Below, in pieces: positions 2,259-21,233 of a stretch of 45,491 nucleotides of DNA; position 1 is the first letter of the stretch, and every line of letters begins with the position of its first letter. The notes under the pieces are model-generated. The model was not told where the DNA came from. It worked only from the letters and a program-made list of their open reading frames with translations, and did not search any database. Made by a program: the position numbers and the translations under genes. This DNA comes from Escherichia phage fEg-Eco06: sequence record PQ141284.1, one strand, 5' to 3'.

Positions 2259-2523
2259 ATTATTCTGGTTCGGCGGTATGCTGGCAATCGGAGGCACATC
2301 GCTGTTTAATGTATATCACCCCAGCGTGGATGACGGATTATTTGGCCGTGTGCTTTATATTCTGACTGCTATTGTCTGCGCCGCCGGATGTATCCACCTG
2401 TTACAGGGCAGCATGTCGCCAACGCTGCCTGAGACATTAATCACATTAGTCGCGCTTCGCCAGATTCGCCAGGCGTGGCTGTCGTATGGAGGACATAAGC
2501 GTGTCTCGAAACATTTCAGATAA
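2251..2523 (+). CDS. second lysis-cassette membrane protein (holin/antiholin-like)
   Basis: 90 aa with 2-3 hydrophobic segments and a basic C-terminus. Overlaps both neighbours. Confidence 0.5.
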   Translation: MNELFWFGGMLAIGGTSLFNVYHPSVDDGLFGRVLYILTAIVCAAGCIHLLQGSMSPTLPETLITLVALRQIRQAWLSYGGHKRVSKHFR

Positions 2524-2986
2524 TGGGTTGCATTTCACCGCTGCGTTTGAGGGGTTCCGAGGTACTGCGTATCGTGCTACGCCGAACGAGAAGTACCTGA
2601 CTATCGGCTACGGTCACTACGGGCCAGACGTAACACCAGGTAAGACCATCACCCCGGGGCAAGGACTCCTGTTACTGAATCGCGACATGGCTAAGGCCGT
2701 AGCTGCGGTTGACGCAGCAGCACACCATTCATTAACACAGGCTCAGTTCGATGCGGTGTGTGACCTGGTATATAACGCTGGCGCCGGCGTGATTGCGGCT
2801 GCTACTGGTACAGGTAAGGCACTGCGTTCTGGTGATATCGAGACGCTGCGGGCTAAGCTGGCGCTGTTCATCAACCAGAACGGCAGACCACTACTCGGCC
2901 TGCGTCGCCGTACAGCAGGTCGCCTGGCGCTGTTCGACGGTAAACCGTGGCAAGAGGCTGAGGCTATTGGGAGAGCCGTTAAATGA
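2486..2986 (+). CDS. endolysin, T4-lysozyme-like (GH24) muramidase
   Basis: HFTAAFEGFRGTAYRATPNEKYLTIGYGH matches the GH24 catalytic-Glu region (E-G-x-x-x-x-A-Y...T-I-G-Y-G-H). An alternative GTG start at 2501 lies behind GGAGGA. Confidence 0.85.
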   Translation: MEDISVSRNISDNGLHFTAAFEGFRGTAYRATPNEKYLTIGYGHYGPDVTPGKTITPGQGLLLLNRDMAKAVAAVDAAAHHSLTQAQFDAVCDLVYNAGAGVIAAATGTGKALRSGDIETLRAKLALFINQNGRPLLGLRRRTAGRLALFDGKPWQEAEAIGRAVK

Positions 2987-3113
2987 TGGACGAATACGAA
3001 GGCATTTAGTAAAATTACTTCCACGCTGCTTGTGCTTGCATACTAAGCCCTGGTAAACCTGAAGCAGCAGCCCAAGCGGTGGAGACTGCGTAGGGTTCAG
3101 GGGCTTATGACCG

Positions 3114-3144
3114 AAACCCGGACCGCGAATCCGGGTTTTATTTT
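3114..3144 (+). terminator. rho-independent terminator after lysis cassette
   Basis: AAACCCGG (3114-3121) pairs with CCGGGTTT (3131-3138), followed by TTTTATTTT. Confidence 0.7.
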
Positions 3145-3334: not shown

Positions 3335-3532
3335 ATGAGTAACGTACCGACAATCGCAATAACCGAGGAACTTGAAGCCAAATGTATCGCATCAGTTATA
3401 GGGAATGGTTCGGTGGAAAAACTACAGATGAGGGCCGCTGCGGGCTACATACGCAGGGCTAATAGTGCGATGAATGATTCCTTACGTAAACGTTACCTCA
3501 TGAAAGCGTTAGAAATTCTGGAGAATAAGTAA
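3335..3532 (+). CDS. hypothetical protein
   Basis: 65-aa ORF with GGAGTAGAGAAG upstream. First gene after the promoter. Confidence 0.6.
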   Translation: MSNVPTIAITEELEAKCIASVIGNGSVEKLQMRAAAGYIRRANSAMNDSLRKRYLMKALEILENK

Positions 3533-3681
3533 TGAAAATCACAGATATTGAGGCATTCAAAGACGCACAACTGATGGCACGTATCGCCGTTAGTAACCTT
3601 AGCAACAGCATCCCGGCAGACGCGTTCTGGTTCGCTGCGATGCAGACACTTAAAGCAGCATATGCAGGAGAGAAGAAATGA
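3532..3681 (+). CDS. small hypothetical protein (49 aa, below track cutoff)
   Basis: Hand translation gives MKITDIEAFKDAQLMARIAVSNLSNSIPADAFWFAAMQTLKAAYAGEKK*. TAATG overlap upstream and ATGA overlap downstream. Confidence 0.5.
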   Translation: MKITDIEAFKDAQLMARIAVSNLSNSIPADAFWFAAMQTLKAAYAGEKK

Positions 3682-3875
3682 AAGTCAAAGCAGCTAAAAT
3701 TCTCTGGTTACCCGCCCTTGACTATGTGACAGAGGGTAAAGTGTATGACGTATACAACCCGAAAACTACTGGTTTTGGTTATATAGTTGCCGATGACGGC
3801 TGTGATATTTACATAGACTTTGGTAGCGATGAAGGTGATGGTTTCCACGGCGTTAAATGGGAGATTGTCGAATGA
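3678..3875 (+). CDS. hypothetical protein
   Basis: 65-aa ORF, translationally coupled on both sides. Confidence 0.6.
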   Translation: MKVKAAKILWLPALDYVTEGKVYDVYNPKTTGFGYIVADDGCDIYIDFGSDEGDGFHGVKWEIVE

Positions 3876-4030
3876 GCGAACAAACACCAATCAGCCAACC
3901 GTTACGAGTAGGCCGTAAAGTCAGTCACATCCCGTTCCCGACACGTGAAGAACTGATGAAACGTAACAGTTTCCCGGGGCCGGACAAGAACAAGTATCTC
4001 AATCGCATGTGGGGAGAGCGTAAAGAATGA
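3872..4030 (+). CDS. small hypothetical protein (52 aa, below track cutoff)
   Basis: Hand translation gives MSEQTPISQPLRVGRKVSHIPFPTREELMKRNSFPGPDKNKYLNRMWGERKE*. ATGA overlaps at both ends. Confidence 0.5.
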   Translation: MSEQTPISQPLRVGRKVSHIPFPTREELMKRNSFPGPDKNKYLNRMWGERKE

Positions 4031-4212
4031 CTGACCGCGAATATGAAAAGATGATGGTTGAGGCCGTTAACAGCGGCGTAGACATCGGACACGTGATGCG
4101 CGTCCTGAATACTAAAATCGCGGTAGCCGAGCAAATGGTCGAGTCGCTTTACGAGACGCGCCGTGAACTGATTAACCGCTTCAACCTGAACAAAGGTGAC
4201 ACCAATGCCTAA
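4027..4212 (+). CDS. hypothetical protein
   Basis: 61-aa ORF, coupled to its neighbours. Confidence 0.55.
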   Translation: MTDREYEKMMVEAVNSGVDIGHVMRVLNTKIAVAEQMVESLYETRRELINRFNLNKGDTNA

Positions 4213-4492
4213 AATCACAATCGCATCTCTCGAGCGCCGTATTCTGGTGCTTGAGTCGGAGAAACAGACGTTAGGCGGGCAACTGTCGATTAACGGTGAG
4301 TTTCAGCTGGAGGCGTTCCGTATACTCCTCGGCGTTATGAAGCAGGAACCCAGCGCATACGCAGGAGTGTTCCTTGACGAGGAAGGTTCGCAGACACTAA
4401 GTTACTACGCTACCGAAGAAGAATTAGCGTTCGACGGCCCCGCGGTATCTATCCCGCTGTTCGATAACTGGATGGTGTACGACTATGACTAA
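4205..4492 (+). CDS. hypothetical protein
   Basis: ATG 4205 (MPKITIASLE...) lies within track ORF 4196..4492 and overlaps the upstream stop. Confidence 0.55.
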   Translation: MPKITIASLERRILVLESEKQTLGGQLSINGEFQLEAFRILLGVMKQEPSAYAGVFLDEEGSQTLSYYATEEELAFDGPAVSIPLFDNWMVYDYD

Positions 4493-5559: not shown

Positions 5560-6069
5560 ATGAAGCTGAAACTTAAGCAGCCATCACCAGAGGTGGTGCA
5601 AGCTGCACATGAAGAAGCTGTTAGCGCAAACCGTCGCCGTAAACGACCGCGCGGTAAACAGAGCCTTTATCAATCATCCCGTAATTCCGCTGCGCTGTGG
5701 GACCCGGACTATTGCGACGAATTGATTCGTTTCTTTGACCGCACGTCGTGGGAGCTTGTGCCAACGTCTAAGGGTGATGAACGCCCACTGATTCAGGATA
5801 AGCCGCCGTCACTGGCCCGCTTCGCCTTACACATCGGCGTAACTATCCCGATAATTAAGCTGTGGCTGCGCGAGATTCCCGCATTTGCAGAAGCCTGGGA
5901 GACAGCACAGGCGCTGGAAGAGGCATACTTCACTGAAACGGGGGCCGCGGGCATCTCTGCTACGTTTGCTGCCGCGAAACTGGGCCTGAATAAAACAGTT
6001 GTCGCCGAAGAAGTACGCGACGAGCCAATCAGCGAAGTAACAATTAAGGTGGTGCCCGGTGAACGTTAA
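5560..6069 (+). CDS. terS: terminase small subunit
   Basis: Lies immediately upstream of and overlapping terL. Basic N-terminus, and an HTH-like segment PSLARFALHIGVTIPIIKLWLRE. ATG 5560 lies behind AAGGGGA; the track ORF starts at GTG 5521. Confidence 0.7.
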   Translation: MKLKLKQPSPEVVQAAHEEAVSANRRRKRPRGKQSLYQSSRNSAALWDPDYCDELIRFFDRTSWELVPTSKGDERPLIQDKPPSLARFALHIGVTIPIIKLWLREIPAFAEAWETAQALEEAYFTETGAAGISATFAAAKLGLNKTVVAEEVRDEPISEVTIKVVPGER

Positions 6070-7330
6070 TATCACGGCAACGGAGCCGCAAGGCGCGTTT
6101 CTCGGTATGCATTGCAAGTTTCCGGCATTCGTAGCTGGCTTCGGTACGGGTAAATCCGAAGTTATGTGCAACTCTGCACTACTCGACAGCATGGAAGGTG
6201 GTAGCGATTCTATCATCGCCATGTATGAGCCGACCTATGACCTGGTGCGCCTCATCCTTGCACCGCGTATGGAAGAAAAGCTCACCGACTGGGGTATCCG
6301 GTACAAATACAACAAGTCTGACAACATAATCTATACGTCTTCCGGACAATTTGGGGATTTTGTTCTGCGTACACTTGATAATCCAGCAAGAATCGTTGGC
6401 TACGAATCGTTTCGTGCGAAAATCGACGAGTTGGACACCCTTAACATGGAGCACGCCGAGCACGCGTGGAACAAAGTCATCGCCCGTAACCGCCAGTTGC
6501 CGCGGACATATAAACCTATTACACCGAAACCTGCTAATACCGTTTCCGTGTTCACTACCCCGGAAGGATTCCGTTTCGTACATGACCGCTGGGTAGTCAA
6601 AAAGAATCCAGGCTACGAGATGATTCAGGCGTCCACCCTGTCTAACCCGTTCCTGCCAGAAGATTATGTGCAGTCGTTACGCGACACATACCCAGGTCAG
6701 TTGATTGACGCCTACATCGACGGCAAGTTCGTAAACCTCACGTCCGGAACGGTATACTATGCTTACGACCGCAGGAAAAACAGCAGTCGCGAAACAATCA
6801 ATCCCGGCGAGACTCTGTATATTGGGCAGGACTTTAACGTAGGTCACATGGCGAGCACGGTTTACGTGCAACGCGGTAAGGTCTGGCACGCTGTTGCCGA
6901 GTTGGTTGATATGTTCGATACGCCTGACGTAGTGCGGGCCATAACTGAGCGATGGAAAAGTAAGGGCCACTATATCGTTATGTACCCGGACGCCAGCGGC
7001 AAAAACCGTAAAAGCAACAACGCCAGTACCTCAGACATCGCTCAGTTACAGCAGGCCGGTTTCGAAGTACGCGCCAAATCAACAAACCCGCCGGTTAAAG
7101 ACCGCGTATCAGCAATGAACAAGGCGCTTGAATCTGGTATGGTCATGATTAATGAGCAGGCATGCCCGGTTACGGCGCGATGCCTTGAGCAACAGGCTTA
7201 CGACAAGAACGGCGAACCGGATAAATCGGGTGGTGTGGACCACCAGAACGACGGGACCACATATCCTATCGCGTATGAAATGCCGATTCGCAAACCAGTT
7301 ATTAATGTCCCGGTGACTTTCGCACTTTAA
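6059..7330 (+). CDS. terL: terminase large subunit
   Basis: 423 aa. Walker A-like AGFGTGKSE near the N-terminus and an acidic nuclease-type C-terminal half. Position is between terS and portal. Confidence 0.85.
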   Translation: MNVNITATEPQGAFLGMHCKFPAFVAGFGTGKSEVMCNSALLDSMEGGSDSIIAMYEPTYDLVRLILAPRMEEKLTDWGIRYKYNKSDNIIYTSSGQFGDFVLRTLDNPARIVGYESFRAKIDELDTLNMEHAEHAWNKVIARNRQLPRTYKPITPKPANTVSVFTTPEGFRFVHDRWVVKKNPGYEMIQASTLSNPFLPEDYVQSLRDTYPGQLIDAYIDGKFVNLTSGTVYYAYDRRKNSSRETINPGETLYIGQDFNVGHMASTVYVQRGKVWHAVAELVDMFDTPDVVRAITERWKSKGHYIVMYPDASGKNRKSNNASTSDIAQLQQAGFEVRAKSTNPPVKDRVSAMNKALESGMVMINEQACPVTARCLEQQAYDKNGEPDKSGGVDHQNDGTTYPIAYEMPIRKPVINVPVTFAL

Positions 7331-7342
7331 GAGGATTATTCA

Positions 7343-8824
7343 ATGTTAACTATGAACGGTCATAATCAGGGTGTTAAGACAAAACACCGGGAATGGCTGC
7401 AGCACTTCAATAAATGGCAGAAGGTTCGCCATGCGCTGGAAGGCGACCTTATTCGCTATCTGCGCAACGTTGGGAAGAATGAGCCGGACCCGACCTACGC
7501 GGCACAGCGCCAGGAAGAATACGAGAACGGCGCTATCTGTTACAACTTCACCAAGAGAACGCTGGCGGGGATGGTCGGCAGTGTCATGCGCAAAGACCCT
7601 GAGCAAATTATCCCGCATGAACTGGAATACCTGTTGCACAACGCTGACGGTTCAGGCGTCTGGCTGTGGCAGCACGCGCAGGATACGTTAATGGAGATTA
7701 ACTCGATAGGACGTGGTGGGTTGCTGGTTGACGCCCCGGAGACTGCTGCCGCAACGGCAGCTGAACAGAACGCAGGGTTATTAAACCCGGTCATCGCATT
7801 CTACACCGCAGAGAACATCATCAACTGGCGACTGACCCGCGTCGGTTCTGTTAACCGTGTGACAATGGTCGTGTTGCGTGAAGTGTGGGAATACTCAGAA
7901 CCTGGAGCAGAGTTCGAAACTAAGTTCGGTGAACAGTACCGCGTCCTTGACCTGATTGATGGTCGCTACCGCCAGCGCATTTACCGTTTCGACGCCGAGG
8001 GCGGCGCTCAGGGCGAAGTAATCGAAATCTTCCCGGAACTCGGCGAACAGTTACGCGGCAAAATCCCGTTCACGTTCATTGGTGCAAGCAACAACGATGC
8101 AACCATTGACGATGCACCTTTGCTGCCGTTGGCTGAGCTTAATATTGGGCATTTCCGCAACAGTGCAGACAATGAGGAGTCCAGCTTCGTCGTAGGCCAG
8201 CCTACTCTGTTCATCGCCCCCGGTGAGAACATGAGCATGGAACAATGGAAAGAAGCCAACCCGCACGGAGTGCGTATGGGGTCACGTTCTGGCCATAACA
8301 TCGGTTACGGCGGCAATGCGTTTCTGGTCCAGGCCGGTGAGAACAACCTAGCCAAGCAGAACATGCTGGATAAAGAGAATCAGGCCATCCAGATTGGTGC
8401 GCAGCTTATCACCCCTACCCAGCAAATCACCGCTGAATCAGCCCGCCTGCAACGTGGTGCCGACACGTCCGTTATGGCGACAATTGCACGTAACGTAAGC
8501 ATGGCGTATACCGATGCGCTAAAGTGGGTTGCGGGTATGCTTGGGCTTAGTGACGGCACTGAAATTGAGTTCAAACTGAACATGGAGTTCTTCCTGCAAC
8601 CAATGACCGCCCAGGACCGCGCTCAGTGGATGGCGGATATTAACGCGGGCCTGTTACCGGCTACCGCTTACTATGCCGCGTTGCGTAAGGCGGGGGTAAC
8701 TGACTGGACAGACGAGGACATTCAGAACGCTATCGAGGATGCGCCGCTGCCGTTAGGTGCTGTTACTCAGGTGGCGGGGGAGATTCCGCAGTCGGCGCAG
8801 CAACAGGACACCACTCAGCCGTAA
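7343..8824 (+). CDS. portal protein
   Basis: 493 aa, directly after terL, with AAGAGGA SD and an acidic/Gln-rich C-terminus. Called from synteny and size. Confidence 0.75.
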   Translation: MLTMNGHNQGVKTKHREWLQHFNKWQKVRHALEGDLIRYLRNVGKNEPDPTYAAQRQEEYENGAICYNFTKRTLAGMVGSVMRKDPEQIIPHELEYLLHNADGSGVWLWQHAQDTLMEINSIGRGGLLVDAPETAAATAAEQNAGLLNPVIAFYTAENIINWRLTRVGSVNRVTMVVLREVWEYSEPGAEFETKFGEQYRVLDLIDGRYRQRIYRFDAEGGAQGEVIEIFPELGEQLRGKIPFTFIGASNNDATIDDAPLLPLAELNIGHFRNSADNEESSFVVGQPTLFIAPGENMSMEQWKEANPHGVRMGSRSGHNIGYGGNAFLVQAGENNLAKQNMLDKENQAIQIGAQLITPTQQITAESARLQRGADTSVMATIARNVSMAYTDALKWVAGMLGLSDGTEIEFKLNMEFFLQPMTAQDRAQWMADINAGLLPATAYYAALRKAGVTDWTDEDIQNAIEDAPLPLGAVTQVAGEIPQSAQQQDTTQP

Positions 8825-8860: not shown

Positions 8861-10831
8861 ATGCTATTAACTTTAGTACCACAGGGTTTAACTATGAGCT
8901 TACTTACATCCCTCATCAGCCATCAGATATGGCTGCAACGCACCGCATCCGGTGAGGTGAAAGACCTCACACCGTTCATTCAGGAGATGCGGGATGAAAT
9001 TAAACGGCAGGTGCTGTTATTCGGTGACGACGGTCGTAGCACTGCGCGACTGAATAAATTGTTACGCGACCTTGAGGAAGCACTAACCGGACTTACGGGC
9101 GACTGGCAGACAAAGCTGACAGAAGACCTTAAGGAACTGGCGGCGTATGAGGCCGAGTGGAACGTAAAGACTCTGACCGCCAACGTTAACGCGGAATTTG
9201 TTACCCCTACCGCGGAACAGGTGTGGGCCGCTGCCGAGTTTCAGCCATTATCGTTGAGTGACAAGCCCGTTGATTTCACTAAGCTGATGGACGGCTGGGG
9301 TGAAACAGAAGTCGCGCGCCTGGTAACCGGCGTTAAGATGGGCTTTGTACAAGGCCAAACCACACGGCAGATTGTTAAGAACGTCGTAGGCGCTGGCGGA
9401 CTGGCGGACATCTCTGAGCGTAACGCGGCCACCGTAATCCGTACTGCACTGTCTCACGTATCCAACGAAGCACGTAACGAGACGTACCGCCAGAACGACG
9501 ACATCATCGAGAAATATGAGTGGGTGTCTACGCTGGACAGCCGTACCAGTACAACGTGTTTCACGGCTGAAACAGAATTAGCGCCCATCGCGGGGATGGA
9601 CGCGGTAATGCGCGGACTCTATTCAGGAAAAATCTTTACCATCGAACTTTCCAACGGCGAGAAGTTCAGTGGCACCCCGAAACACCCTGTACTCACGCAA
9701 TACGGATGGACTCCGCTTGATGAACTCGATCCAACTAAGCATGTCTTGTATACCACTGTTGACAAAGTGACTGTGCTCGAAACAGTGAAGAACATAAACA
9801 TGCCAGCCAGAGCGGATTATATTTTTAATACGCTCGCTGATTTCCCCATCAGGAAAATGGTAAGCACGAGTCCCGCGGCAACAGATTTCTATGGCGATGG
9901 AGTGGGACTCAATGGCAAAATCGACATTGTACGGGCCGATTGCAAACTGCGGAACTACGTCCACGCCAGCGGAATTAAACAATTCAAAAGCGAGGGTTTC
10001 AGTCTTATTCATAGCGCCGCTTTGCTGTCGGACGATAGCTCTGGCGATTTTCTCCTCCGGGGTGAATGTCCTGTGAGTGTGCCCGCGCTTAGCGAGGCCA
10101 AGTGTTTTGACCATAGAATAGAAAACTGTTTTGCTTACTTGGGTCCTTCTTATGCACTCAATAGGCGGGACGCCGGACTCGAACAATTCTATAGCCCTTT
10201 TTTGATTCAAAATGGTGTCGTTAGAAACCCAACCACGGGGTCGATCATGCATGAGTCCGAGCTTCTTGAGAAATGTTGTTACCGTGGTGGTAGTGACGCC
10301 GTAATTCTTGGCTATGATGCTGGCGGGAGTGCCATCTCGGTACAAAGAACAAATATCATCCGCATAAGCGTCGAGTTTAGAACGTGCCATGTTTATACCC
10401 TCTCTAGTAGTCAAGGATATTATACAGCAGGTAGTGCGATAGTCAAGAATTGCAGGGCCAGAGACGGGATGGCGTGGGAAATCGGTAAAGGTCCGATGCC
10501 CCCCGCCCATCCGAACTGTCGAAGTACCACTGCACCTGTAATCAGTTCGGAGTTCGACTTCCTGGATAAAGGCGCAAAACGCGCGGCTAAGGGTGCAGAA
10601 GGCGGCACTCAGGTAAGCGCAGACACCACATATTACGAGTTCCTGAAACAACAGCCCGCATGGTTTCAGGACCAGGCGCTCGGCCCGGTGCGAGGTAAGA
10701 TTTTCCGTAACAGCGGTATATCGCCGGAAGAGTTTCGCGTAATATCTGTAGATGGTTTCGGGAATCCGCTCACGCTTAAGCAGATGGCGGAACTCGATAA
10801 ACGTGTTGCTGATTATCTGAAAGGGGGATAA
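8861..10831 (+). CDS. head morphogenesis protein (Mu F / SPP1 gp7-like), intein-containing precursor
   Basis: 656-aa ORF. The extein halves join as ...EWVSTLDSRTSTT / CRARDGMAWEIGKGPMPPAHPNCRST, the Mu-F-type C-terminal motif. The predicted spliced product is 358 aa. An alternative start is ATG 8894. Confidence 0.75.
   Translation: MLLTLVPQGLTMSLLTSLISHQIWLQRTASGEVKDLTPFIQEMRDEIKRQVLLFGDDGRSTARLNKLLRDLEEALTGLTGDWQTKLTEDLKELAAYEAEWNVKTLTANVNAEFVTPTAEQVWAAAEFQPLSLSDKPVDFTKLMDGWGETEVARLVTGVKMGFVQGQTTRQIVKNVVGAGGLADISERNAATVIRTALSHVSNEARNETYRQNDDIIEKYEWVSTLDSRTSTTCFTAETELAPIAGMDAVMRGLYSGKIFTIELSNGEKFSGTPKHPVLTQYGWTPLDELDPTKHVLYTTVDKVTVLETVKNINMPARADYIFNTLADFPIRKMVSTSPAATDFYGDGVGLNGKIDIVRADCKLRNYVHASGIKQFKSEGFSLIHSAALLSDDSSGDFLLRGECPVSVPALSEAKCFDHRIENCFAYLGPSYALNRRDAGLEQFYSPFLIQNGVVRNPTTGSIMHESELLEKCCYRGGSDAVILGYDAGGSAISVQRTNIIRISVEFRTCHVYTLSSSQGYYTAGSAIVKNCRARDGMAWEIGKGPMPPAHPNCRSTTAPVISSEFDFLDKGAKRAAKGAEGGTQVSADTTYYEFLKQQPAWFQDQALGPVRGKIFRNSGISPEEFRVISVDGFGNPLTLKQMAELDKRVADYLKGG
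9623..10390 (-). CDS. putative homing endonuclease (two HTH motifs plus Vsr/DUF559-like PD-(D/E)XK domain) encoded antisense within the intein
   Basis: 255 aa from ATG 10390 (MARSKLDAYADD...). SD AGAGAGGG lies 7 nt upstream. HTH-like segments are GTPASIIAKNYGVTTTTVTTFLKKLGL and GVPPIECIRRTQVSKTVFYSMVKTLGL. The nuclease-like core is ETLAFELF...QFAIGPYNVDFAI..HSIAIEI...SGWHVYVL. Confidence 0.65.
   Translation of the reverse strand: MARSKLDAYADDICSLYRDGTPASIIAKNYGVTTTTVTTFLKKLGLMHDRPRGWVSNDTILNQKRAIELFESGVPPIECIRRTQVSKTVFYSMVKTLGLAKRGHTHRTFTPEEKIARAIVRQQSGAMNKTETLAFELFNSAGVDVVPQFAIGPYNVDFAIESHSIAIEICCRGTRAYHFPDGEISERIKNIIRSGWHVYVLHCFEHSHFVNSGIQDMLSWIEFIKRSPSVLREYRVFRGATELLAVGKFDGKDFS
10419..10446 (-). 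promoter_or_regulatory. near-consensus sigma70 promoter for the antisense endonuclease gene
   Basis: On the minus strand: TTGACT (10446-10441), 16-nt spacer, TATAAT (10424-10419). This lies 28 nt upstream of ATG 10390 and inside the intein C-terminal splicing-block codons. Confidence 0.65.
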
Positions 10832-11292
10832 TGATGGGCTTTTTCAAAGTAACTGATGTACCGTCGCGTCGCGTTGTCCAGTTTGCTCGCGTGTCTGGCT
10901 CCGGCGAGAACGTGGTGGCTATTGGGGACGAAAGTGTGCTGGGTACACCAGTAGACGATATGCCGTTTGCGGATAAAACCGGTATTGCGCTACCCGCGGC
11001 AGGGATGCTTTACGAGATTCCGTATCTGGCGGACGCAGGCGATGTGTATCTCTCTGTACAACCGAAAGACACAGAACTGACAGACGGCAGCGCGACTATC
11101 ACTGTCGAAGTTAAGGCCGGTAAAGCACCATACGCGCTGACCTGGTACAAAGACGGTAAGGAAGTGGTAAACGCCCCTGCAGAGGCTCTGTCTCTGACGG
11201 TTAACGCGGTGGGTGAATACTTCGTTAAAGTTACCGATGCCGATGGCGTAGAGGCCTTCAGTAAAGCGGCGAAGGTTATTAAGCCCGAATGA
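10831..11292 (+). CDS. Ig-like domain protein (possible capsid decoration/accessory protein)
   Basis: 153 aa. The C-terminal YALTWYKDGKEVVNAPAEALSLTVNAVGEYFVKVTDADG is an I-set/Big-type Ig signature. Confidence 0.6.
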   Translation: MMGFFKVTDVPSRRVVQFARVSGSGENVVAIGDESVLGTPVDDMPFADKTGIALPAAGMLYEIPYLADAGDVYLSVQPKDTELTDGSATITVEVKAGKAPYALTWYKDGKEVVNAPAEALSLTVNAVGEYFVKVTDADGVEAFSKAAKVIKPE

Positions 11293-12396: not shown

Positions 12397-12478
12397 TTGC
12401 CTTGCATGTTGGAATAATTTATTCTTGACATGTAAATCCGGGTGGCCCGGATTCCAACGTCCAGGGGACATACTGACT

Positions 12479-13183
12479 ATGAATCGTTTTTTACGTTATC
12501 CGTTCCAGGAAGAAGCTGGAGCAGAAGATAAAGCTGGTGGCGGTGACGCTCCTAAAATGTTCACCGCTGAAGAAGTTCAGGCGCTGATTGAGAAAGAAGT
12601 TGCCGGGCTTAAGGCCAATCAGGAAGCATTGCTGGCGGAGAAGAAAGAAGCCGCCCGTAAAGCAAAAGAGGCCGAAGAAGAACGGCAGCGTGCGCACCAG
12701 GAGGCGTTAAAGGCCGCCGGTAAGATGGACGAGTTTGAAAAGACGATTCGTAGCCAGTATGACCCGGTGTTAGCCGAGAAAGATGGCCGCATCTCCAAAA
12801 TGGCAGAGCGCATCCTCGGCAGCGAACGTAAAGCGGTGCTAGGCTCTTTCGCGGGTGACTTTATTACCCCGGAAGCAGTGGACATCCTTGCGCCGTTCGT
12901 TAAGACTGAGTTCGAAGGTGATGATGTGGTTACTAAGTTTGTCGGCGCAGACGGTAACGTAATCACGACTGACCCGGAACAGTTCCGCAAATACCTGCGA
13001 GAGCACAAAGCGTTTTCGCATTTGATTAAAGCAAATGCAGCTTCCGGCGGCGGGGCTTCCGGTAGCAAAGGCGGCGGGGCCGCACCAGCGTTTAAAGACA
13101 TGAGTGAAGCAGAGCGTATCGCTCTGTACGAATCGAACCCTGCCGAATTTGAACGGCAACTTAAAGCCCTGAGGAAAAAATAA
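12479..13183 (+). CDS. head scaffolding protein
   Basis: Highly charged, Ala/Glu/Lys-rich helical protein directly upstream of the major capsid gene. ATG 12479 is preferred to the track TTG 12425. Confidence 0.65.
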   Translation: MNRFLRYPFQEEAGAEDKAGGGDAPKMFTAEEVQALIEKEVAGLKANQEALLAEKKEAARKAKEAEEERQRAHQEALKAAGKMDEFEKTIRSQYDPVLAEKDGRISKMAERILGSERKAVLGSFAGDFITPEAVDILAPFVKTEFEGDDVVTKFVGADGNVITTDPEQFRKYLREHKAFSHLIKANAASGGGASGSKGGGAAPAFKDMSEAERIALYESNPAEFERQLKALRKK

Positions 13184-14232
13184 TGGCAATTACTACTATC
13201 GGCGATATCGTAACTGGTAAAGAATCGGTTATTCTGTCTTACATGACAGAGGACCCGGTAGAAAAAACTGCGTTCTTCCAGTCTGGTATCCTTACCCCGA
13301 CTCCGTACGCCGCTGCTATCGCTAACGGCCCGTCTAACAAAGCGGTCCTGCCGTACTGGAAAGCTATTGATACCTCTATCGAGCCGAACTACTCGAACGA
13401 CGTATATCAGGACGTCGCTACCCCGCGTAACGTGCAGACCGGCGAGATGAACGTTCGCGTAGCTTACCTGAACGAAGGTTTTGGCCAGGCAGACTTGACG
13501 GTAGAACTTACCAGCCAGAACCCGCTGCAATCTGTAGCGTCCCGTCTGGATAACTTCTGGCAGCGCCAGGCACAACGCCGTCTGATTGCTACCGCGCTCG
13601 GCCTGTACAATGACAACGTAGCGGCTACCGATGCATACCACGAGCAGAATGACATGGTGATCGACGTTTCCGCTACTATGGGCTTCGACTCCGGTGCGTT
13701 CATCGACGCTACCCAGACTATGGGTGACGCGCTGATGGGTAACGGCGGTGAAGTGCTGGGGGCTATCGCGATGCACAGCTTCGTTTATGCGCAGGCTCGT
13801 AAGCAGCAGCTTATCGACTTCATCCGTGATGCTGACAACAACACCATGTTCGCCACCTACCAGGGCTACCGCGTGATTGTTGACGACAGCATGACCGTAG
13901 TCGGCACTGGCCCGACCCGTAAGTTCATCTCCATCATCTTCGGCAACGGCGCTATCGGTTACGGTGAAGGTTCTCCGTCCAACCCGCTGGAATACGAGCG
14001 CGAAGCGTCCCGCGGCAACGGCGGCGGCGTTGAAACCCTGTGGACCCGTAAGACCTGGTTGCTACATCCGTTTGGTTACAGCTTCACCAGTGCAGTAATC
14101 ACTGGCAACGGCACCGAGACTACCCCGCGCTCTGCTTCCTGGCAGGACCTGGCGAACGCCTCCAACTGGAACCGTGTGGTTGACCGCAAGCACGTACCGA
14201 TTGCCTTCCTGGTAACTGGTGTCGGTGCTTAA
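13183..14232 (+). CDS. major capsid protein
   Basis: 349 aa. Follows the scaffold with a TAATG overlap and is followed by a strong terminator. Called from synteny and size. Confidence 0.8.
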   Translation: MAITTIGDIVTGKESVILSYMTEDPVEKTAFFQSGILTPTPYAAAIANGPSNKAVLPYWKAIDTSIEPNYSNDVYQDVATPRNVQTGEMNVRVAYLNEGFGQADLTVELTSQNPLQSVASRLDNFWQRQAQRRLIATALGLYNDNVAATDAYHEQNDMVIDVSATMGFDSGAFIDATQTMGDALMGNGGEVLGAIAMHSFVYAQARKQQLIDFIRDADNNTMFATYQGYRVIVDDSMTVVGTGPTRKFISIIFGNGAIGYGEGSPSNPLEYEREASRGNGGGVETLWTRKTWLLHPFGYSFTSAVITGNGTETTPRSASWQDLANASNWNRVVDRKHVPIAFLVTGVGA

Positions 14233-21126: not shown

Positions 21127-21233
21127 GTAGTGTGCTAGAATAATTTTGCGCCTAGTGTCGCACACGAAAAGCGGGTGGTTCCCGTCTGGCGCATTTCCTT
21201 TAACCAGTAACCTCTTAACCAAAGGATTAAAGA

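Follow-up and report, generated by a model that had tools for sequence, protein, structure and literature searches.

The window analysed here, which is the whole 45,491-nt stretch of Escherichia phage fEg-Eco06 (PQ141284.1), has an open reading frame (ORF) of 656 aa in a single uninterrupted frame at 8861..10831 (+), which encodes a Mu-F/SPP1-gp7-like head morphogenesis protein and carries 298 additional codons inside the most conserved motif of this family. The locus therefore raises the question of what these codons are and how they came to be there. The initial annotation described the segment 9557-10450 as an intein with Lys as penultimate residue, and its ORF and translation (Cys1...TPKH...CHVYTL...AIVKN, Cys+1) are reproduced exactly. 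This reading is incomplete, since about two thirds of the "298-aa intein" (~9740-10360) are the mirror of a homing endonuclease gene (HEG) on the opposite strand, which lies in an overlooked minus-strand ORF of 342 aa (9623..10651) that overlaps the segment. The locus is probably composed of a cis-splicing intein and a separately transcribed antisense homing endonuclease, which would move together by homing after cleavage of intein-less alleles.

The insertion is defined by comparison with intein-less homologues. A blastn search of the gene against 50,697 phage records identifies 491 records that hold it, and the insert is covered in only three of them, BEU35, vB-Eco-KMB36 (KMB36) and Ec1-ASingh (Ec1), while about 488 align as two pieces around it; a fifth filled copy is IMG/VR UViG_3300045988_006100. 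The ordinary empty allele encodes 358 aa and reads LDSRTS(T/A)I↓CRARDG, where the arrow marks the insertion point, and the filled allele reads LDSRTSTT↓298 aa↓CRARDG. The spacing of the motif is kept in both kinds of allele, so the insert is a clean in-frame addition of 894 nt and its excision restores the family motif. The boundaries first proposed for the element, and the claim that excision rebuilds the conserved Mu-F-type motif, thus hold against about 490 homologues, among which colinearity across the segment is not the pattern. The exteins match PF04233 (Phage_Mu_F) with 36.6 bits (cut-off 29.6), the Pfam match lying at aa 159-236, and TIGR01641 (SPP1 gp7) with 45.3 bits (cut-off 39.65), and the N-extein matches PHROG 241, "head morphogenesis", at E 3e-147, which bears out the proposed host protein.

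The residues required for protein splicing are recognised in the segment and are shared by a family. Alignment A3 comprises 30 sense-frame intein relatives from metagenomic and genomic loci, in which Cys1 is conserved in at least 90% of the members, Thr40 and His43 of block B (T40-P-K-H43) and Asn298 are invariant, and block F/G is conserved. The block B sequence TPKHPVLT aligns with TPDHKVLT of the Mtu RecA intein. The A3 profile matches solved inteins over both N- and C-terminal blocks with E values from 3e-9 to 1e-5, the best being Mtu RecA (3e-9), followed by KlbA, RadA, CDC21, NrdJ-1, DnaX, and DnaB, and its C-terminal part matches the KlbA and CDC21 inteins. PF14890 (Intein_splicing) is matched by 30 of the 30 members at E <= 0.01, the best value being 5.9e-14. 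The penultimate residue is Lys in the window, as had been noted, and also in L005, L006, L041, and L057; the 30 aligned relatives have His in 25 cases, Lys in four and Gly in one. The penultimate His is common in inteins, yet it is dispensable in some of them. The conserved splicing residues and the profile matches support the assignment of the segment as a class-1 intein (Cys1, Thr40/His43, Asn298, Cys+1), which would remove itself by splicing. A group I or group II intron, an RNA element, was considered and rejected, with no Rfam match at the gathering threshold in 9300-10700.

The minus strand of the same segment encodes a protein of 255 aa, for which full-length homologues with 53, 45, and 26% identity are found. 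An exhaustive profile search returns 303 clusters at E <= 1e-30 and 2483 at E <= 1e-10. The antisense protein is predicted with a confident fold, composed of helix-turn-helix (HTH) and Vsr-like (PD-(D/E)xK) domains, and residues D157, E168, and R187 are invariant in 55 sequences of the HEG family. The nuclease part matches no PHROGs family and gives nothing significant against NCBIfam. The gene has its own candidate expression signals, a sigma-70-type promoter, which is written opposite intein residues GYYTAGSAIVKN and whose -35 hexamer overlaps the codons Val-Lys-Asn, and a Shine-Dalgarno-like ribosome-binding site (RBS). At the other end of the gene, the C-terminal hairpin of the HEG product (aa 233-248) is the mirror of block B, and the family motif REYRV.(R/W)G corresponds to TP.HP(V/I)LT of the intein. 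In this hairpin stretch selection is dominated by the intein frame, and the AlphaFold block-mean pLDDT (predicted local distance difference test) is 82-92 over aa 221-250. The features of the locus are listed in Table 1.

Table 1. Coordinates of the intein, its exteins and the antisense gene in the window.
Feature	Position	Strand	Basis
N-extein, Mu-F/SPP1-gp7-like minor head protein, 232 aa, ending ...LDSRTSTT	8861..9556	+	ORF list, Pfam, TIGR01641, PHROG
Extein codons -2/-1, ACA ACG (Thr-Thr), co-travelling with the intein	9551..9556	+	junction comparison, 5 filled vs 6 empty alleles
Intein, 298 codons, Cys1 to Asn298	9557..10450	+	translation, 894-nt gap, family profile, PF14890
N-terminal splicing region, sense frame selected; Cys1 9557-9559, block B TPKHPVLT 9674-9697	9557..9739	+	codon-position divergence
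Mirror region: minus-strand HEG frame under purifying selection, plus-strand frame only kept stop-free	9740..10360	.	codon-position and identity comparison
C-terminal splicing blocks F/G (CHVYTLSSSQGYYTAGSAIVKN), penultimate Lys297	10385..10450	+	alignment A3, profile match, sense-frame dominance
C-extein, Cys+1 (10451-10453) RARDG...PPAHPNCR..., 126 aa + stop	10451..10831	+	
HEG, 255 aa + stop; start ATG 10390, stop codon 9625-9623	9623..10390	-	
HEG tandem HTH domains, aa 5-96	10103-10378	-	
HEG Vsr-like nuclease core, aa 146-203; D157 9920-9922, E168 9887-9889	9782-9955	-	
Putative sigma-70-type promoter, TTGACT, 16 nt, TATAAT (11/12)	10419..10446	-	promoter scan
Shine-Dalgarno-like GAGAGGG, 7 nt 5' of ATG 10390	10398..10404	-	sequence
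Terminator-like hairpin and T-rich tail, 20 nt past HEG stop	9571..9603	-	weak

Intein and HEG are written in exact codon-aligned antisense register, with HEG residue i opposite intein residue 279-i and sense position 1 paired with antisense position 3. The ratio dN/dS could not be used among the intein-bearing phages, because they differ at only 1-3 sites, and distant metagenomic relatives were compared in its place, the window with L005 and L006 and then the 30 family members, in an alignment built on the sense protein. At intein residues 1-61 and 268-298, variation is highest at sense position 3, and conservation is better in the sense protein than in the antisense one. At residues 62-267 (~9740-10360), variation is highest at sense position 1 and conservation is better in the antisense protein, even though the alignment was built on the sense protein; amino acid identity among the window, L005, and L006 across this middle is 0.25-0.66 in the antisense frame versus 0.06-0.48 in the sense frame. 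Databases reflect the same partition. Neither Pfam nor PHROG matches the sense middle. Of 5.8 billion proteins searched with the intein in its sense frame, only two are partial homologues, so that no deep sense-frame alignment is obtained from this source, whereas the antisense frame has hundreds of homologues.

The register also determines how the host gene stays readable, since TTA, CTA, and TCA are the only HEG codons that place a stop in the sense frame. The window HEG has 16 Leu and 19 Ser residues and uses none of these three codons (P ~7e-4 given the codon usage of the phage), and no stop is found in the 298 sense codons of its intein. For comparison, 39 of 3889 windows of 255 codons in the other genes of the phage are open in the codon-aligned antisense frame. 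The three codons are also absent in the HEGs of L005, L006, and L008, and in 44 of 45 further HEG loci, which were retrieved by patterns of the catalytic core and not of the tail, versus 34% of control windows from neighbouring genes that are open. Among the loci with GC content below 0.55, all 10 of 10 HEG regions are open compared with 6% of control windows. The sense frame is kept open by selection, and the precursor stays translatable only because the HEG never uses TTA, CTA, or TCA.

The only HEG homologue among the 45 loci that contains such codons is L030 (3501-4097 of JAOPYQ010000041.1, a Thermoleophilia metagenome-assembled genome), where no recognisable intein block B lies opposite the gene. 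This homologue may be a free-standing or decaying copy.

The putative promoter of the HEG is kept in place among divergent relatives. Its hexamers and the RBS occur at the same position in four lineages with the insertion site of the window, which are the window, L005, L006, and L057, although their HEG proteins are only ~45-60% identical. The L057 promoter is perfect, TTGACA-16-TATAAT (12/12), the spacer between the hexamers varies among the lineages, and GAGGG..TATAAAC ATG is kept in L005, L006, and L057. The -35 hexamer is opposite the Val-Lys-Asn codons, so that GTC AAG is the mirror of CTT GAC, and L041, a distant VKN member, has TTTACT at the -35 place. Relatives with His at the penultimate position cannot form a -35 hexamer of the TTGACT type. 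The codon of Lys297 thus lies inside the antisense -35 hexamer, which may explain the non-canonical residue of the intein. The hypothesis that the penultimate Lys is a by-product of the antisense promoter is based on a small clade and one independent case.

The distribution of the insert indicates recent movement. Relative to the window, the 894-nt insert differs at one position in BEU35, two in KMB36, and three in Ec1. The exteins of KMB36 and Ec1 differ from those of the window at ~75 of 696 positions in the N-extein and at 40-48 of 381 in the C-extein, and BEU35 has no difference in the N-extein (0/696) and 22 of 381 in the C-extein, from 10468 on. If insert and flanks had diverged together, dozens of changes would be present at the free third positions of the HEG. 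Going outwards from the element, identity between backgrounds is lost within 27 nt on the upstream side and ~17-41 nt on the downstream side. The upstream flank of KMB36 is that of the BUCT789 empty allele, except that ACGATT is replaced by ACAACG; the six empty alleles compared have ACG ATT or GCT ATT (Thr/Ala-Ile) at codons -2/-1. The sharp edges of identity and the ACAACG replacement argue that the element entered several extein backgrounds at one site and carried two extein codons with it. Such precise entry is the signature of endonuclease-driven homing, in which the HEG product would be the cleaving enzyme.

Three alleles near or with parts of the element deserve description on their own. 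In the C-extein, the window differs at 10468 and 10472 from all other filled and empty alleles examined (GGGATGGCG vs GGAATGACG), with Ala for Thr in MAWEIG. Together with the identical N-extein of BEU35 and its C-extein differences from 10468 on, this suggests a recombination breakpoint adjoining the intein. BEU33 (OM632667; L002/L056), which has no intein, has the exteins of the intein-bearing BEU35, the two phages sharing the positions at which they depart from the window. At the junction BEU33 reads AGT ACT↓TGC (TST-C), where normal empty alleles read AGT ACG ATT↓TGC, so that its one-codon deletion falls exactly at the insertion site (window 9551-9556/10451); the allele could have escaped by becoming resistant to cleavage, or the intein could have been lost from it imprecisely. 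An extra Thr in the filled allele, which a comparison with BEU33 had implied, was rejected, since normal empty alleles share the spacing TSTI↓C and it is BEU33 that lacks a codon. The third is L058 (GCA_001292545.1, contig CYGL01006417.1), whose protein P0243 of 238 aa has the last ~40% of the intein, 100% identical, between an unrelated N-terminal segment and a C-terminus that is likewise unrelated, and which is probably an assembly chimera and not a new insertion.

A mechanism can be proposed from the anatomy of the locus, the predicted fold, the frame selected in each region, the avoidance of stop codons, the horizontal spread and the family membership, and its steps of splicing, DNA cleavage, timing of expression and target-site choice are inferred. 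The intein would be translated within the 656-aa precursor and would splice itself out to leave a 358-aa Mu-F-type protein. It has no endonuclease domain in its own frame, and the minus strand inside it provides a complete gene, equipped with a sigma-70-type promoter, an RBS and an ATG, for a 255-aa product with two HTH DNA-binding domains and a Vsr-like nuclease of the PD-(D/E)xK, I-Bth0305I type. Host RNA polymerase would express the nuclease, which during co-infection would cut intein-less alleles near ...AGTACGATT↓TGCAGG..., and repair from the intein-bearing genome would copy in the intein, the HEG, and the two adjacent extein codons.

Some observations weigh against this mechanism. Both His residues of the motif GGxWH..GxH are present in 52 of the 55 HEG-family members and absent in the window, P0001, and P0002; the motif is replaced by CCRGT... 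in the window clade, whose nuclease chemistry may accordingly differ or be impaired. The terminator-like hairpin after the HEG is no better than chance, with three terminator-like sites in the region against 1.5 expected. On the intein side, the expected match to intein or Hint models, which 30 of 30 relatives give for PF14890, falls below the cut-offs when the window sequence is used alone (PF14890, 21.8 vs 35.8 bits; TIGR01445, 17.8 vs 24.5). An AlphaFold model of the 298-aa intein made with no alignment has a pLDDT of 31 and is uninformative about order or disorder of the middle. In some inteins a change of the penultimate His to Lys slows the cyclisation of Asn.

The main alternative, which is unlikely, is that the endonuclease of the window clade is no longer active, so that a splicing intein carries the antisense HEG as a dead passenger and spreads among Kagunaviruses only by ordinary homologous recombination in mixed infections. 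The missing histidines agree with it, as does the mosaic structure of Kagunavirus genomes, whose block-wise identities are 88-99%; however, purifying selection on the HEG frame among the window, L005, and L006, the conservation of the promoter and RBS, and the fact that the variant motif IAIEICCRGT is itself kept in these three loci weigh against it. In addition, in each of several extein backgrounds the island of identity begins and ends within tens of bases of the element's edges, which generalised recombination is not expected to produce repeatedly.

It is considerably less probable that the insert does not splice in cis, either because the 656-aa protein tolerates an insertion of 298 aa or because the gene is fractured and its halves are joined in trans. 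The non-canonical Lys agrees with this reading, and related Vsr-like endonucleases are present in fractured genes that have split inteins (Dassa et al. 2009, PMC2677866), but a gene whose sense frame is free of stops here and in 44 of 45 related loci is not fractured, and the family-wide conservation of Cys1, Thr40/His43, Asn298, and Cys+1 speaks against it. The insertion also falls inside the most conserved Mu-F motif, directly before a conserved Cys, and intein-bearing phages are viable isolates (vKMB36, PMC11162368).

The view that the segment is a canonical intein with a sense-frame central domain, a new endonuclease or linker, opposite a minus-strand ORF open by chance is very improbable, for although codon-aligned antisense frames are often open (the 39 of 3889 own-gene windows, and the 34% of control windows from mostly GC-rich loci) and sense motifs such as DF(H/Y)GDG are conserved, this motif in its longer form (V)P..(A)EDF(H/Y)GDG exactly mirrors PVAVEV(F/W)GG.WH of the nuclease, sense position 1 is the most variable, the sense middle lacks Pfam and PHROG matches and has two partial homologues among 5.8 billion proteins, and the antisense protein has a confidently predicted HTH and Vsr-like fold with its own promoter and RBS.

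The combination of intein and antisense HEG found in fEg-Eco06 is part of a broad family. The related loci come from Pseudomonas, Micromonospora, Chloroflexota, Planctomycetota, Bacteroidota, cyanobacteria, candidate phyla, and others, and the sense ORF is of the Mu-F type in nearly all of them. Two insertion sites are used. Site a (D.RT...↓C...DG) is occupied in the window, L005, L006, L026, L039, and L057, and site b (HPN↓C...THN↓CRC) in most related loci. Homologues of the HEG are found in 18 GenBank phage records, in all of which they lie under a minor head or MuF gene annotated on the other strand, and the HEG itself is unannotated in 18 of 18.

Several observations concern these sites. 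Both directly precede conserved cysteines of one motif, D.RT...C...DG......PP.HPNC(R)(C/S) (loci L012-L054; window 9554-9556 / 10511-10516). The Pseudomonas prophage homologues L021 and L024 have exteins close to those of the window and an intein at the other site (HPN↓C). L011 (IMGVR_UViG_3300031576_000021; 3341-4480, 2324-3127) has two inteins in one Mu-F-like ORF, at sites a and b, and its site-a intein has its own antisense ORF, whose architecture is a different one, with zinc-ribbon repeats and a DUF559/Vsr-like C-terminus (..EYRVGRFALDFAF..LALEVDGRYWH..).

The closest described case is phage vB-Eco-KMB36 (OR525703; Arch Virol 2024, PMC11162368), for which a "900-bp intein" was reported. 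It is the same element at the same site, 2 of 894 nt from the window, annotated as "minor head protein with inserted intein", in exteins that are ~11% diverged from those of the window, and the antisense HEG is neither mentioned in the publication nor annotated in the GenBank record. The head morphogenesis protein, which had been suggested as a less usual host for an intein, is not a new kind of host, since the same element had been reported in vKMB36 and inteins in MuF-like minor capsid proteins have been listed for actinobacteriophages (bioRxiv 10.1101/2025.01.02.630785).

Contiguous actinobacteriophage inteins with antisense VSR-like endonucleases are described by Gosselin, Arsenault and Gogarten (bioRxiv 10.1101/2025.01.02.630785), and the supplementary table of that preprint gives the Gordonia phages Vivi2, Angelicage, Affeca, Fosterous, and Malisha as "minor capsid, MuF-like, VSR -1 ORF". 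A tblastn search with the window HEG matches Vivi2, Fosterous, Affeca, Angelicage, and Malisha, with E values from 7e-12 to 4e-10 and each match under a MuF-like gene, so the window element is a member of this antisense-VSR intein family; other matches are in Aaphi23, S1249, Idiomarinaceae phage 1N2-2, and a Vibrio phage. The window shares with them the host protein family, a contiguous intein and a Vsr-like HEG in the codon-aligned antisense frame. Its HEG lies at 10390..9623 inside 9557-10450 in frame -1, the sense frame is uninterrupted, and the HEG product is homologous to those of the Gordonia phages. It differs from them in a HEG identity of only ~25-30%, in its coliphage host and in the lack of the GGxWH..H histidines. 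The target consensus of the Vivi2 intein cluster, ...HEVIN↓CRC, is taken as site b, whereas the window intein is at site a. In the main text of the preprint the word "promoter" is not found and "stop codon" is mentioned twice, neither time in an analysis of avoidance.

Other systems resemble the locus in part. In the fractured genes of Dassa et al. 2009 (PMC2677866), free-standing Vsr-like endonuclease genes lie between the halves of split inteins; as in the window, the endonuclease-insertion region of an intein is occupied by a free-standing HEG of the Vsr superfamily that has expression signals of its own, mostly in phages, but there the host gene is two ORFs, the halves splice in trans and the hosts are DNA-metabolism enzymes. 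The sense frame of the window is continuous, a single 656-aa ORF instead of two ORFs flanking the HEG, and the same is found in related loci. Taylor et al. 2011 (PMC3239194) characterised I-Bth0305I (EDxHD homing endonuclease family; PDB 3R3P), whose gene lies in a group I intron; E. coli Vsr (PDB 1CW0) functions in repair. The window HEG product has the predicted Vsr-type PD-(D/E)xK fold of these proteins and differs from both in its two additional N-terminal HTH domains and in the absence of the conserved histidines. Inteins of the canonical kind, such as Mtu RecA (PI-MtuI) and PI-SceI, have a LAGLIDADG or HNH endonuclease in frame. They share with the window blocks A, B, F, and G, a site in a conserved motif and the behaviour of a homing element, but in the window the endonuclease is outside the intein polypeptide and ~200 central intein residues are a mirror translation that is not under selection. 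Endonuclease ORFs opposite a contiguous intein are also described for the Synechocystis DnaX intein and for minor capsid inteins of actinophages (Gorbalenya 1998, Gogarten 2002, as relayed in bioRxiv 10.1101/2025.01.02.630785); these are of the LAGLIDADG type and belong to another nuclease superfamily.

The arrangement is therefore rare but already described, the intein being known from vKMB36 and the antisense VSR architecture from Gordonia phages. What is added here is the breadth across bacterial phyla together with the analyses of the promoter and of codon avoidance, as an extension with mechanistic detail and not as a new category. The HTH and Vsr-like family, which comprises hundreds of clusters at 50% identity, might live almost only antisense in Mu-F inteins across many phyla, and the two genes might have co-evolved under reciprocal constraint, an idea offered tentatively. 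It is suggested by the HEG motif (R)(E/Q)YRV.(R/W)G, which mirrors intein block B, by the HEG start and promoter, which lie inside blocks F/G, by the penultimate Lys of the window clade, which looks imposed by the -35 hexamer, and by the ~200 residues of unselected mirror peptide in each precursor, which would be tolerated only through splicing away. The locus is a clear natural example of one DNA segment that serves a gene on each strand, and the consequences can be measured: three codons are avoided in the HEG so that the intein frame remains readable, and the HEG promoter is placed within the splicing motifs of the intein. The locus lends support to the view that an intein becomes mobile by capturing a free-standing endonuclease gene, and it indicates that current phage annotation systematically overlooks the antisense HEG. 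The coliphage copy is in a tractable host, and the near-isogenic BEU35 (intein-bearing) and BEU33 (intein-less) make splicing, homing and dual coding directly testable.

The genome is that of a Kagunavirus (Guernseyvirinae) of E. coli, circularly permuted, and its nearest relative is phage BEU35. The Mu-F/SPP1-gp7-like gene is directly after the genes of the terminase large subunit (6059-7330) and portal (7343-8824), and is followed by that of an immunoglobulin-like decoration protein (10831-11292). Two further features are found in the window. An open frame of 385 aa at 12619-13776 (-) lies antisense to the ORFs 12425-13183 and 13183-14232 (+), which are by position those of the scaffold and the major capsid protein; it has no Pfam match and is most likely a chance antisense ORF. 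The region 21145-21209 (+) has a marginal Rfam match to int-alpA RNA (RF02996), with 36.6 bits against a gathering score of 35.8.

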